Made by a program: the position numbers and the translations under genes
The notes under the pieces: model-generated
Databases searched by the model: none
What the model was told of the DNA's origin: nothing
Seen by the model: the letters and a program-made list of their open reading frames with translations, nothing else
IMG/VR virus record: IMGVR_UViG_3300032322_002195
Coordinates: 44,838-108,837 of that record
Direction: 5' to 3' (one strand)
Length of the DNA stretch: 64,000 nt
Source: a virus
Shown: positions 4,214 to 50,868 of the stretch, in pieces
Position numbering within the stretch: the stretch's first letter is position 1
Layout: the number at the start of each line of letters is the position of its first letter

Positions 4214-5995
4214 TTATTTCATTCCATTAAATAACCACATGTATTGACCTAAAGGGTCTTGCATATTTTTAGAAATAGCTGGGTTAAATTTAGGTTTTGG
4301 CGTTGTCGCCTTATTTCTGTTTTCTTTGCTAACAAAACTACCAGAAGCTGGTTCTTCTTTTACCGATGGTGAACCAACCACCCAACTACTTAGCATAGCT
4401 TTGTTTTGTTTTTCTAATCTTTCTAGATTTTTAAAAGAATGTTCTACAACCCATAAACACATAGCCATTGCCATTAGCAAATCGTCATGATAACCATCCA
4501 TGTGGTCTGGTCTACCATTTTTGTAAATAAATGTTTTCATCTCAGATGTCATTCTAACCGAACGAATTTTAACAGCGTCCGTTCTAATTTTAAATTCTAA
4601 GTTTGAAATCATTGGTAGACGAACTGATGTTGCGTGAAAACCTGGTATTTTATTATCTTTATTATAACTAGTTAATTCTCTTTGTTTAGAAGATAAAACT
4701 TTTCCATTTTGGCTATCATAGTGTAATCTTTTATAATTAAATTCTAGTAATTTAAGAATAGTTGAAACACCCATACCACCAGTTGCATCCACCACAGTGT
4801 AAGCCTTGTATAAATTTCCATATTCTTCAACAATTTGAGCCAATAAATCTGGTTGTATCTTTCCTTGATATTCTACGACTTGCTCCATGGTTGTAAAATC
4901 CAATATAACCATTGTTGAAGAATCCTCTCCATCACCTCTGGATACGTCCACACCCATTATGTATTGATGTCCCTCTTGTGGCTCATCCCAAATCCATATT
5001 TCACCCTCTGGGCCAGCGGTATATAACGGTTCTCTTACGTTGTTTTTGTTTTGGAATTCAATGTGTTCTTCGTCAATAACGTTACCACCTGAACCAATGA
5101 AAGACACGTCCAATTCTTGTGCAATCATCTTAGCATCATTATTCATACCACGACACATTTCTTCATACCATGAAGATGTTGGTTTCCAACCTCCCAAAAT
5201 TCTTTTTTCGTAAGAATTAAAAGTAAATTCAACCTCATCTTCTGTCACTTCATCTTTGACCCAACGTAAATCTTTATTGTAACGCAAGTCTTCATACCAT
5301 TTCATTTCAATAATATTGAAATTGTTTTCCTTTTTCCTAGCTTGGTCATATGTTTTGTAATAAAGTGCGTCCATACCACGAGGTGTTGATATAAGAGTTG
5401 CTTTGCCACCAGTACCCAAAGCCGTCAAAGCAGCACCAAATACTTCGGCACCATTATCAATATATGCGGCTTCATCCATAACTAAGTAAGTTGGAGTGAA
5501 ACCACGCAACGCATCTTTAGATGTAGCAACCGCTTTTACACGACTACCATTAGGTAATTTTATTTCTTTTTTAGAGTCAGTAAGGAATATTGACTTTTCT
5601 TCATTTTTTTGATTACCATAGTATTCAGAACCCCAAACCCATCTTGGTAATTGAGAAACAAACTCTTTAATTTTTGCCAAAAATTCAAACGCCAACTCTT
5701 GTTTGTTGGCAATGATAAGAACAGCTTCTGGGTTTTCAGCATCAGCAAAACCAACCTTTATTGCCATATAAGCTGCCGTTGTCGTTGATACCCCAGCCTG
5801 TCTTGGTTTTGTGATTAAATTAAACCTATGCTTTTCATAAGCATAGATTATTTCTTTTTGTCTTGGGAATAGCTTAAACGGTACAAACCCTTCTTGAGTT
5901 TTATCAAATGTTTCCAAATAAGTCTCAATACCATATATCGGACTTGTTAAACATTTGGCATATTCTTTAAATATTTCTGTTTTTGTTAATAGCAT
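4214..5995 (-). CDS. terL: terminase large subunit (T4 gp17-like)
   Basis: LFPRQ Q-motif, KPRQAGVST Walker A, LVMDEAA Walker B, ISTPRG motif III, nuclease motifs MGVDVSRG and HDDLLMA. Confidence 0.95.
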   Translation of the reverse strand: MLLTKTEIFKEYAKCLTSPIYGIETYLETFDKTQEGFVPFKLFPRQKEIIYAYEKHRFNLITKPRQAGVSTTTAAYMAIKVGFADAENPEAVLIIANKQELAFEFLAKIKEFVSQLPRWVWGSEYYGNQKNEEKSIFLTDSKKEIKLPNGSRVKAVATSKDALRGFTPTYLVMDEAAYIDNGAEVFGAALTALGTGGKATLISTPRGMDALYYKTYDQARKKENNFNIIEMKWYEDLRYNKDLRWVKDEVTEDEVEFTFNSYEKRILGGWKPTSSWYEEMCRGMNNDAKMIAQELDVSFIGSGGNVIDEEHIEFQNKNNVREPLYTAGPEGEIWIWDEPQEGHQYIMGVDVSRGDGEDSSTMVILDFTTMEQVVEYQGKIQPDLLAQIVEEYGNLYKAYTVVDATGGMGVSTILKLLEFNYKRLHYDSQNGKVLSSKQRELTSYNKDNKIPGFHATSVRLPMISNLEFKIRTDAVKIRSVRMTSEMKTFIYKNGRPDHMDGYHDDLLMAMAMCLWVVEHSFKNLERLEKQNKAMLSSWVVGSPSVKEEPASGSFVSKENRNKATTPKPKFNPAISKNMQDPLGQYMWLFNGMK

Positions 5996-38315: not shown

Positions 38316-38394
38316 GGTTAAATGGCGTAGCTGGATAGCGCAAGGATAGTGGCAGACCCCACCCTTTACACAGGTTCGAATCCTGTTTTAACCA
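38316..38394 (+). ncRNA. tRNA-like RNA without a canonical anticodon loop
   Basis: acceptor GGTTAAA/TTTAACC-A, D-arm GCGT..GG..GCGC, T-arm ACAGG-TTCGAAT-CCTGT; central AAGG-ATA-GTGG-CAGACC-CCAC-CCTT. Confidence 0.7.
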
Positions 38395-38496
38395 CGAATG
38401 CAGTTCAAATCTGCTCGTTGACTGAGGTTATGGTAAGTAGACTATTGAGGTACGCACTCAACTTAGAAATAAGGTAGAATGAAGTGAACAGTCAAA

Positions 38497-44730: not shown

Positions 44731-44973
44731 TTATTTAGAATTTTTTAATACCTCTCCAATAGCTATATGCAAATCTTTTAATTGTTCTCTTGTCATATAA
44801 GGTATCATCATTGTATGATAGTACAAATTCCTACGTTCTGAACGACTATCGTGGTCTGGATATAGATTATTATCTTCAATGCTAATATAACCAACATTAC
44901 CAGTTAAACCAACATATATCTTATGCCCATTAGCATAGGTAAATCTTTGTGCAAGTTTTTGTTGTTTTGCCAT
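44731..44973 (-). CDS. hypothetical protein
   Basis: 80-aa ORF in array. Confidence 0.55.
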   Translation of the reverse strand: MAKQQKLAQRFTYANGHKIYVGLTGNVGYISIEDNNLYPDHDSRSERRNLYYHTMMIPYMTREQLKDLHIAIGEVLKNSK

Positions 44974-48203: not shown

Positions 48204-48506
48204 ATGGAACAAAAATACTTCTTCGGTTGGGATAATATCAAATGGTTTATCTCAGAAATTTGCAAAATCTATTCATCACAACCTTCTTTCTTTTCTAAGA
48301 AAAGAATTGAATCTGGAATCGCTTTTATTATTGCTCAATGGGGAATGATTTATTTCCTAGTTACTCACTCATCAGCTTTAACGATGGGTGAATTTTTATT
48401 ATGGGCGACCACTGAATTTGCCGTATCAGGTTATATAATCAATCAAATTCAGAAAGAAAAAAAAGAAATCGTTTCGGAAGAAAATCCACAACAACTTAAT
48501 GATTAA
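48204..48506 (+). CDS. two-TM membrane protein (holin-like candidate)
   Basis: FSKKRIESGIAFIIAQWGMIYFL and second hydrophobic segment. Confidence 0.55.
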   Translation: MEQKYFFGWDNIKWFISEICKIYSSQPSFFSKKRIESGIAFIIAQWGMIYFLVTHSSALTMGEFLLWATTEFAVSGYIINQIQKEKKEIVSEENPQQLND

Positions 48507-48557
48507 CGGAGCTTAGCTGAATCCATGTACACAAACGTGTACACCATATAAAATAGC

Positions 48558-49005
48558 CAAACCCCTGTCCACATTTCGGGCTCAGGGGTTGACTTTTTCT
48601 AATAATTGGCCGCATATAAGCTGCCTTCGGTTGTTAATGCGGGCATAGCCGCCCGCTGGCTGAATTAAGAGGTGAGAGCCCACCCCAATCAATCGGCTCA
48701 AACTGATTGAGATGTCACCACTTTTTGGCTCAATGGGATGCCTTCCCACCGACTTACGTCCCTTGGCAGGGAACCTTTTTCGGATGTTTGGGTACACAGT
48801 GCCAATCTGCCTTTCGGGAGGGGCTGATGTCCCATTTTTAATATAAGGTTTGACCGACCTTAGTTAATCCTTTTCAGGGGATACGGATGGTGCATTAGCA
48901 TACATATCACTATGATGTTTTTTGTAATCCTAGGACAGCTACCACAGTCTACATCCTAGGTACTCAACGCTTTTATAACTAATGTGTAAGTTAAGCGTAA
49001 ACTTA
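48558..49005 (-). ncRNA. candidate large structured ncRNA (~450 nt)
   Basis: GC-enriched, no credible ORF, own promoter at 49011-49042, many hairpins. Confidence 0.65.
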
Positions 49006-49061
49006 CAAGACAAAGGTAAGAAATAAATTTGATATTACCAAATTTATTTTCAATTTTTTTG

Positions 49062-49185
49062 CGGTCATAATTGGACTCGAACCAATAAGATGATGCTTAT
49101 ATGTCGTTATTCCTAGCAAATTGGTATTTATCATTTCCAAGTTGCCGCTATCTGATTAATCTCTAGCTTTACGACTAATATGACC
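49062..49185 (-). ncRNA. tRNA-like RNA with ~90-nt non-tRNA central domain
   Basis: acceptor GGTCATA/TATGACC-G, T-arm ATTGG-TTCGAGT-CCAAT; own promoter at ~49212. Confidence 0.65.
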
Positions 49186-49431
49186 AAGTATTAATTTCAA
49201 TGAACGTGAGACAAAGGTAAGAAATAATTTTGATATTACCAAATTTATTTTACCTTTTCAATGGCTGAAGATATTATCGTTCCTAATATAATTAATAATG
49301 ATTGGGTACCGATAATTTTTAAATAAATTTCGTTTTTATCACTCCAAAGAGCAAGTACGGCTATTGGAAACATACTAAGTAATATCAACCCAAGAATAGC
49401 GTTAATAGTTTTTTTCATTTTTTTGTTTTTG

Positions 49432-49505
49432 TGCGCCCTGCTGGGCTCGAACCAGCGACCTATTGATTATGAGTCAATTGCTCTGACCAACTGAGCTAAG
49501 GGCGC
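49432..49505 (-). tRNA. tRNA with CAT anticodon (Ile2-like; Met not excluded)
   Basis: GCGCCCT TA GCTC AGTTGGTCA GAGC A ATTGA CTCATAA TCAAT AGGTC GCTGG TTCGAGC CCAGC AGGGCGC A. Confidence 0.93.
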
Positions 49506-49519
49506 AAATAATTATATCA

Positions 49520-49777
49520 TTATTTACTTTCTTGAATAATAAACTTCCCTTCGATAAGTCCATACTTGGATTTTTCTTGATAAGAATAAACCTCAACTGA
49601 ATCGGTTGATTTCATCGGTTTTGTCAATATCCAAAGTTGGTCATCTTTCCAAGAACAATTCATCAATTTTTGATTTTTTTCTAAGGTAAATGTTTGGGTT
49701 TGTCCATACTTTTTAACCAATACGTTATCGCAACTGGTTAAGGAAATTATTCCAATAAGTAATAATAGTTTTTTCAT
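49520..49777 (-). CDS. small lipoprotein
   Basis: MKKLLLLIGIISLTSC. Confidence 0.7.
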   Translation of the reverse strand: MKKLLLLIGIISLTSCDNVLVKKYGQTQTFTLEKNQKLMNCSWKDDQLWILTKPMKSTDSVEVYSYQEKSKYGLIEGKFIIQESK

Positions 49778-50340: not shown

Positions 50341-50868
50341 TTACTCGGCAAAGTCAGGTTTTATTTCAGCATACCCGATTGGTTTCTTGCTTTCAACTGA
50401 AATAATATCTCTAGCCCACGTTCCAATGTACTTATTTTCACCTTCAAAGTCACCACCACCCCTGCCGTTTCCTTCGCACGTAAGCAATGGTAGAGGGTGT
50501 ATTTTAGTTCCTTTCCACATAGGGATTTCAGAAACCGAAAACTTATCCACAAATTGCTTTTTGGTGTGGTTTACAATGTAACGTGTTTCAGTTGTGGTAA
50601 ACCTTTCCGTAGGTTTAACTTTTTCTGTGTCCTTGCAACGGCCATACAAATTTGTTTTTCTGCCTTTGCATTCATCGGCATAGTCGCCAGCCCATACAAC
50701 CCTTTGAGGTTTGTTTTTGATTAGGCTTTCAAAGGCACTCACAAAATCATTTCCAATGTCGGAATGTTCCATGAGTTTAAGCCCATTGTCGTATTCGTGT
50801 GAATACATCCAAGATTTTACTGTTTTTTTGTTTTCAGCAAGCAAAATTGGTTTAAAATACTGTCCCAT
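50341..50868 (-). CDS. hypothetical phage protein
   Basis: MGQYF, GLKLMEH, VWAGDYAD, IHPLPLLT..GNGRGGGD. Confidence 0.7.
   Translation of the reverse strand: MGQYFKPILLAENKKTVKSWMYSHEYDNGLKLMEHSDIGNDFVSAFESLIKNKPQRVVWAGDYADECKGRKTNLYGRCKDTEKVKPTERFTTTETRYIVNHTKKQFVDKFSVSEIPMWKGTKIHPLPLLTCEGNGRGGGDFEGENKYIGTWARDIISVESKKPIGYAEIKPDFAE

Follow-up and report, generated by a model that had tools for sequence, protein, structure and literature searches.

A probable new family of modular structured RNA with a constant 54-nucleotide core in large freshwater phages

Within a 64,000-nucleotide stretch of a virus record (IMG/VR IMGVR_UViG_3300032322_002195, positions 44,838 to 108,837; hereafter the window), a segment of about 450 nt next to tRNA genes had been proposed, in a first-pass annotation made from the letters alone, to encode a highly structured RNA that belongs either to a class such as GOLLD and ROOL or to a new one. 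Is there a real RNA gene at this locus, is it known, and what might the RNA do? The 108.8-kb record is about 32% complete by CheckV, the window encodes portal, large terminase and ParB-like genes, and the relatives of the window phage are phages of 200–360 kb. The segment 48545–49004 on the minus strand is very probably a real non-coding RNA gene of an uncatalogued family, and this family is narrow, being found within a small group of large freshwater phages.

The locus is set apart by its composition and its signals, both of which the first-pass annotation had picked out correctly. The GC content is 0.48–0.51 at 48500–48900 versus 0.27–0.33 (about 0.30) in the surroundings, and an ORF check found no convincing ORF from about 49004 to about 48545. 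The promoter of the gene (Table 1) exactly matches a 32-nt repeated motif, of which the window holds 27 copies versus 0.07 expected by chance, and an equivalent promoter architecture precedes every homologue of the RNA. We take its TTTG/TAnnTTTG pattern to be the sigma-type consensus of Bacteroidota. From these signals, the 5′ end is predicted about 7 nt past the –7 box, and the 3′ end in the U-rich tail after the terminator. The terminator hairpin is flanked by U-runs on both strands and therefore likely serves both directions, probably also ending the convergent gene P0003; a simple terminator scan omitted this hairpin because its loop has 15 nt.

Table 1. Positions of the RNA gene, its parts and its neighbours in the window, and of boxA-led stretches in other contigs
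Feature	Positions	Strand	Details
P0003	48204..48506	+	100-aa protein with two hydrophobic segments; convergent, constant neighbour of the RNA
Palindrome	48526..48543	.	7+7 with 4-nt spacer; between RNA terminator and P0003 stop; kept in 5/5 variants
RNA gene	48545..49004	-	about 460 nt; ends predicted from promoter and terminator
Terminator	48545..48590	-	8-bp GC-rich hairpin (48560-48590) and U-rich tail
Extension	48591..48666	-	about 75 nt, only in the window/L148 type; 6-bp GC hairpin at 48639-48656
Long bulged hairpin domain	48667..48723	-	closing helix, 3+5 bp; inner helix, 14 bp
3′ bulge of bulged hairpin	48676-48680	-	GGCUC, 5 nt, complementary to the loop
Loop of bulged hairpin	48695-48700	-	UGAGCC, 6 nt
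Constant core	48722..48775	-	two hairpins, 54 nt, nearly invariant; begins GGU
Core end	48722-48729	-	GCC and five A
Core hairpin 2	48730-48752	-	9 bp with two G-U pairs; 5-nt loop
Core single-stranded segment	48753-48758	-	YGUAAG
Core hairpin 1	48759-48772	-	5 bp, variable tetraloop
Window-specific 5′ domain	48776..48984	-	hairpins CCTAGGA, AAGGT and CCT-GAAA-AGG; 8-bp bulged helix enclosing a GAAA hairpin
5′ terminal hairpin	48985..49007	-	8 bp; replaces the small leader hairpin of relatives; followed by a degenerate remnant of the boxA leader
Promoter	49011..49042	-	-33 TTTG at 49039-49042; -7 TAccTTTG at 49011-49018; exact match to the 32-nt motif
tRNA-like RNA	49062..49185	-	7-bp acceptor stem and T arm; own promoter at 49212-49243
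57-codon ORF	49245-49418	-	hydrophobic N-terminal half; between tRNA-Met and tRNA-like RNA; absent from the L148 allele
tRNA-Met (CAT)	49431..49505	-	Rfam 74.9 bits; ARAGORN
boxA-led stretch, L186	539-1100	+
boxA-led stretch, L188		-
boxA-led stretch, L189	1198-1750	+
boxA-led stretch, L187	4251	+
boxA-led stretch, L190	2094	+

The promoter copies span 28993–62461 of the window, nearly all on the minus strand, and since each heads a short gene or RNA, this region is a cassette array. As had been noted on first inspection, the RNA gene lies beside tRNA genes, with tRNA-Met upstream on the same strand. The tRNA-like RNA next to its promoter lacks normal D and anticodon arms; ARAGORN misses it, and the Rfam tRNA model gives it 15 bits, which is below threshold. 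In the relatives, the same slot holds a different hairpin RNA of 100–170 nt that shares the first dozen bases. Predicted duplex energies between this upstream small RNA and the large RNA were no better than those of shuffles in any of the five variants. Elsewhere in the window, at 38316–38395 (+), ARAGORN predicts a tRNA but calls an anticodon of two bases and leaves the type undetermined; the Rfam tRNA model gives this tRNA 46 bits.

We compared the RNA with known families. No family of Rfam 15 matches it at the gathering score in a scan of the window. At E ≤ 10, the 1.3-kb slice 48300–49600 returned nothing on the RNA itself; the regional matches were tRNA-Met and its reverse-strand echo, the 15-bit tRNA-like element and one chance lncRNA. 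Four homologue loci likewise gave no match at E ≤ 5. Membership in GOLLD or ROOL, one of the two options raised at first, is thus rejected for want of a covariance-model match at any of these settings, and RNase P RNA, tmRNA, group I and II introns, known self-cleaving ribozymes and phi29-type pRNA are rejected since their Rfam models do not match either. The two ends of the window RNA do not pair with each other, and it has neither a T arm nor a CCA end. As far as covariance models tell, all these classes are excluded. The first-pass annotation had likewise seen no hallmarks of RNase P, tmRNA or introns, and its suggestion of a possible new class, which a strong Rfam match would have deprived of novelty, stands for the window RNA and its homologues alike. 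A twister-like resemblance of CUGCCAA...AAAAGUGG was also considered and dropped, as the bases vary among the variants and twister models do not score.

GOLLD and ROOL RNAs, the closest known systems, are borne by phages and prophages, measure several hundred nucleotides, contain no ORF, fold intricately and have an unknown function (PMC12286853). They often adjoin tRNA genes, GOLLD env-38 lying downstream of a Met-tRNA, and GOLLD consists of one conserved and one less conserved part (PMC12286853). The window RNA resembles them in being phage-borne, with tRNA-Met 430 nt upstream and with portal and large terminase genes in the same window, but its family is shorter (about 320–460 nt versus 580–800 nt) and its constant part is central and comprises just 54 nt. 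Among other phage RNAs, the stable RNAs C and D of T4 and their like are non-coding, lie among phage tRNA genes, have an unknown function, measure about 120–140 nt and are processed from the tRNA transcript. The window RNA is also a non-coding RNA among phage tRNA genes; unlike the T4 RNAs, it comes with a promoter and a terminator of its own, and it folds differently. To our knowledge, orphan structured RNAs are numerous beside the tRNA genes of large phages and none has a known function; the window RNA represents a new, uncatalogued family among them.

Relatives were found via neighbouring-gene anchors and a conserved-motif scan of viral contigs and metagenomes. This yielded four further variants in freshwater viral and metagenome contigs, namely L002 (identical in L057, L158 and L160), L067 (identical in L164), L168 and L148. 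All variants have the same layout of promoter, RNA, terminator, 7+7 palindrome and convergent P0003 homologue. Wider searches added no member to the family. Blastn against a phage GenBank collection gave no match to the window RNA, and nhmmer with the window RNA or a three-sequence profile against 146 related loci returned only close relatives. The covariance model of the core (R1) found nothing beyond the known copies over 1.45 Mb of related loci; furthermore, R1 and the core-plus-hairpin model R2, with G018 as a positive control, showed the family to be absent from 48 related phage records, 8 of which are at least 90% complete. A core pattern matched 7 times in 185,579 prokaryote genomes, all of these matches being chance or coding.

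The constant convergence with P0003 raises the idea that the RNA is an antisense regulator, in the manner of a type I antitoxin, acting on P0003 through the common 3′ end. The RNA is indeed always convergent to the gene of this small hydrophobic membrane protein, which has no PHROG match, and the two share a two-way terminator hairpin. However, the P0003 homologues in dozens of other, more distant phages have protein genes downstream rather than this RNA, so the pairing with the RNA is not obligate. Moreover, the overlap covers the terminator only, the core lies about 200 nt away, and the overlapping part differs between the two types of the RNA described below. We consider such a role very improbable.

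Comparison of the variants revealed that the RNA is a mosaic. Between the window and L148, identity is 90% at 50400–49520 and 98.4% at 48775–47800, while everything in between, that is tRNA-Met, the 57-codon ORF, the tRNA-like RNA and the 5′ domain, is replaced. Between the window and L002, only the core and the P0003 side are common, with 94% identity in the core, 76% in the adjacent protein gene and no similarity in the flanking RNA. The breakpoints of these recombination events, 48775/48776 and 48721/48722, are the exact edges of the core. Because the breakpoints fall at both of its edges, the core appears as the fixed point around which modules are shuffled. The RNA is thus modular, with a swappable 5′ domain, a constant core, a bulged hairpin kept in shape and a terminator. 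The initial proposal of a structured RNA of about 450 nt therefore holds as regards a structured non-coding RNA, but not as regards one conserved fold, given the exchangeable modules around the 54-nt core. Past the far end of the gene, the palindrome is kept although the neighbouring 3′ domains of the RNA differ.

Contigs of three other DNA runs, which come from three studies and of which two are labelled freshwater metagenome, match the window at 48350–48775 and continue directly with the promoter at 49211. The L148-type allele, at about 320 nt the shortest of all, is thus the common one. Conversely, the sequence 48776–49005 is private to the source sample of the window. No homologue of the 5′ domain was found in any collection searched, the hits being just short chance matches in five related records and two coding chance matches in IMG/VR. 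Folding energy gives the same picture. The 5′ 230 nt alone fold no better than shuffles (z = –1.25; 25 of 200 shuffles as good), whereas the core with the 3′ half reaches z = –3.0. For the whole RNA z is –2.3, with 1 of 100 shuffles as good, which is better than chance but not dramatically so; the relatives lie much farther from their shuffles (z = –5.8 and –4.9). The fold signal of the window RNA thus stems from the core and the 3′ half, and 48776–49005 is a one-off allele without comparative or thermodynamic support. All eight hairpins listed in the first-pass annotation are present in the minus-strand sequence where it had placed them. Relatives support TCCCT/AGGGA, TGGGA/TCCCA, TCTCAATCAGTT/GATTGATTGGGG and the terminal hairpin among these, but not CCTAGGA/TCCTAGG, AAGGT/ACCTT and CCT-GAAA-AGG, which lie in the unshared 5′ domain. 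Comparison with relatives thus backs only the 54-base core and the 3′ half.

We then examined what these two parts conserve. In the core, 48 of 60 aligned columns are invariant among the five variants, and hairpin 1 shows C-G/U-A covariation; model R1 scores the window copy at 89 bits. The bulged hairpin that follows occurs in two sequence types without detectable similarity, one in the window and L148 and the other in L002, L067 and L168. Both types begin at the identical base after the core and fold into a closing helix and a perfect inner helix of 14–15 bp, with UGAGC contained in the loop and GCUC in a 3′ bulge of 5–6 nt. Model R2, built from the other type only and without the window, nevertheless aligns the window copy from end to end, with a score of 79 bits. 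Ten pairs in helices 4 and 5 of this hairpin have changed on both sides, and these helices remain 90–100% paired. Downstream, the other type carries a stronger hairpin with a U-tract at the place of the window terminator. In the extension of the window/L148 type, one population variant at 48651 turns a C-G into a U-G pair, and the remaining variants from other samples fall in loops and linkers. Over the core and 3′ hairpin together, eleven pairs have changed on both sides, and 97.4% of alignment cells form standard pairs, versus 87% in shuffles and 36–50% with the partners slid. The covariation score is 0.37 versus 0.18 in shuffles (none of 500 as high) and at most 0.14 with the partners slid, in an alignment of five variants that represent two or three lineages (essentially two), contain few independent events and were fitted to the structure.

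Could the locus encode a small protein instead? In each of the five variants, a frame of 64–93 codons does run through the core without a stop. However, the variants share no start codon, the flanks of the core are unrelated at the protein level between the two types, and the core substitutions, about 11 in number, are all non-synonymous in the sole frame open in all five, those in hairpin 1 being pairwise compensatory. Indels that would break the frame separate the 5′ domains of the relatives. A GC-rich sequence in an AT-rich genome is in any case expected to contain few stop codons. For these reasons we reject coding and rate a protein gene in this frame as the least probable of all the readings considered. 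Since the core substitutions change amino acids yet compensate each other, base pairing rather than an ORF is what the homologues conserve, a point on which the first-pass annotation had made its proposal depend, and the window RNA reads as non-coding.

Folding energy does not discriminate between the strands, the plus strand folding about equally well (z = –2.4); it is the promoter, the terminator and the G-U pairs that support the strand assignment. The G-U pairs occur in hairpin 2 and helix 5, and since the opposite strand would have C-A in their place, they fix the minus strand. The equal folding of both strands, the breakpoints at the core edges and the conserved palindrome nearby would also suit an element that works at the DNA level, such as a site of recombination, replication or protein binding within a GC-rich spacer. 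Yet a dedicated promoter and terminator bracket every variant, the G-U pairs and compensatory changes indicate RNA helices, and the leader of the relatives contains a boxA. There is thus only a slim chance that the locus is such an element.

What might the RNA do? We give an even chance to the reading that it is a stand-alone structured non-coding RNA of a new narrow family that acts in trans via its core as a decoy or scaffold. In this proposal, the gene would be carried in an RNA/tRNA cassette slot by a clade of large phages from freshwater whose promoters are of the Bacteroidota type, and its product would act in trans during infection as a folded particle. The functional site would be the core, with its single-stranded YGUAAG, its 9-bp hairpin containing G-U pairs and its GCC-AAAAA tail, which may dock a partner from the host or the phage, most probably a protein. 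The flanking helices would confer stability and be free to be swapped. It is the conservation pattern that points to a decoy or scaffold role: because 54 nt with single-stranded segments are invariant while the helices merely keep their shape, the RNA resembles a recognition platform on a stable scaffold. The natural recombinants in effect dissect the RNA, and a constant 54-nt core amid swapped domains points to the functional site; the L148 allele would be a convenient construct for structure and binding work. A search of the 109 kb of the phage itself for targets of the single-stranded core segment found none. Two tertiary contacts were discarded. One is a kissing interaction, for which the loops of the core hairpins are complementary in the window but not in L148 and L067; the other is an H-type pseudoknot of the core GAGCC with the bulge, for which there is no linker to cross the stem.

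The same core features could alternatively mark a processing site. Hairpin 2 followed by G-CCA would then act like a tRNA minihelix in directing RNase P and 3′ trimming enzymes, and the transcript would be a precursor that is cut at the core and splits into a 5′ RNA and a 3′ RNA functioning separately, which would explain the independent exchange of the two sides. Consistent with this, the modules recombine at the core edges, and the 9-bp stem, whose third and fourth pairs are G-U, leads into a purine, CCA and a run of A; the tRNA-Met and tRNA-like RNA of the phage have similar purine-C-A-run trailers, and the gene stands in a row of tRNA and tRNA-like cassettes. However, the loop has 5 nt and is no T loop, the stem has 9 bp rather than 12 and begins with U rather than G, and tRNA and tmRNA models do not score on hairpin 2 even at E ≤ 10. 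Besides, in most minimum-energy folds the GCC can pair with the GGU at the core start instead. Processing at the core is accordingly improbable in our judgement.

Besides the trans-acting decoy or scaffold that we prefer, the bulged hairpin suggests a second mode of action, in which the RNA assembles with itself: the UGAGC loop of one molecule would pair with the GCUC bulge of the next to form head-to-tail dimers, rings or cages, while the core would provide a further contact or a place for cargo. Loop and bulge are complementary over 5 Watson-Crick pairs in both unrelated hairpin types, at about –7 kcal/mol each and with a chance of 0.002–0.011 per type, the register differing by one pair between them. 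The unpaired bases of loop and bulge are kept while 8 of the 15 intervening helix pairs have turned over. Because they sit 14–15 bp apart on one helix, by helix geometry they should be unable to meet within a molecule and could pair only between molecules. There is precedent in the cages of ROOL and GOLLD, which are held by quaternary kissing loops and loop-to-bulge stem-loop daisy chains, one such quaternary contact having earlier been taken, from covariation, as a tertiary contact (PMC12286853). ROOL and GOLLD form RNA-only multimeric cages, whereas for the window RNA only the loop–bulge complementarity is seen. A similar logic operates in phi29 pRNA, whose hairpin loop and bulge loop are complementary and pair only between molecules to form rings; the pairing in the window RNA would follow the same logic, but this RNA has no sequence or fold similarity to pRNA and no link to packaging genes.

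Several points weaken the case for self-assembly. Both hairpin types have GAGC and GCUC by descent, and the two cases therefore do not count as independent. The core contains the same heptamer as well, which makes alternative pairings possible. The L148 allele, at its size, falls well short of the 580–800 nt of ROOL and GOLLD, and among the known variants there is no third lineage with a changed yet complementary loop–bulge pair. Self-assembly is therefore unlikely, albeit the foremost of the alternatives; a little less likely still is a self-assembling ribonucleic particle whose core is a functional or catalytic face, such as a new self-cleaving or ligand- or protein-capturing motif. If this holds, Bacteroidota jumbo phages would possess a compact, modular RNA akin to pRNA, ROOL and GOLLD. 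The loop–bulge complementarity offers a concrete and cheap handle on the question of RNA self-assembly.

Returning to the trans-acting RNA with a docking core, the relatives may reveal how its transcript is completed. In four of four relatives, the RNA begins with a small hairpin and a 20-nt leader with a perfect boxA, 20–30 nt past the –7 box. This leader runs into a long-range helix UUGGUU.../...AACCAA, which encloses the 5′ domain. That domain measures about 190 nt in L002, L067 and L168 and only 33 nt in L148; one pair of this helix changes from G-C to U-A between the long and short forms. Many indels of lengths not divisible by three separate the three long 5′ domains, whose hairpins show compensatory changes. 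Searching for the boxA consensus GYTCTTTAANA (PMC5725501) inside 48558–49005 gave no match, even with one mismatch allowed. The window copy is thus a recombinant allele that has lost the hairpin-plus-boxA leader and carries a unique 5′ domain. As its 5′ half is unsupported and its boxA missing, it could be a poorly functional recombinant.

The relatives resemble the rrn leader in their succession of a small hairpin, a perfect boxA and the 5′ strand of a long-range helix. They differ in that no rRNA lies downstream, the window allele itself lacks a boxA, and Nus binding in the relatives is putative. By analogy, the boxA would recruit host Nus factors and thereby allow the structured transcript, which is not translated, to be finished; the leader suggests that these phages borrow host antitermination of the rRNA type to make the RNA.

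The 20-nt leader with its perfect boxA also heads other promoter-led stretches, ORF-poor by eye, in unrelated IMG/VR contigs (Table 1), and it may be a general mark of non-coding RNA genes in these phages. L186, L188 and L189 have in common an RNA-like unit of about 480 nt that ends in a strong terminator. In L187, about 260 nt downstream of the boxA leader, positions 4513–4566 (+) give a sub-threshold but clear match to twister-P1 (49.3 bits versus a gathering score of 67.2; E 2e-8).
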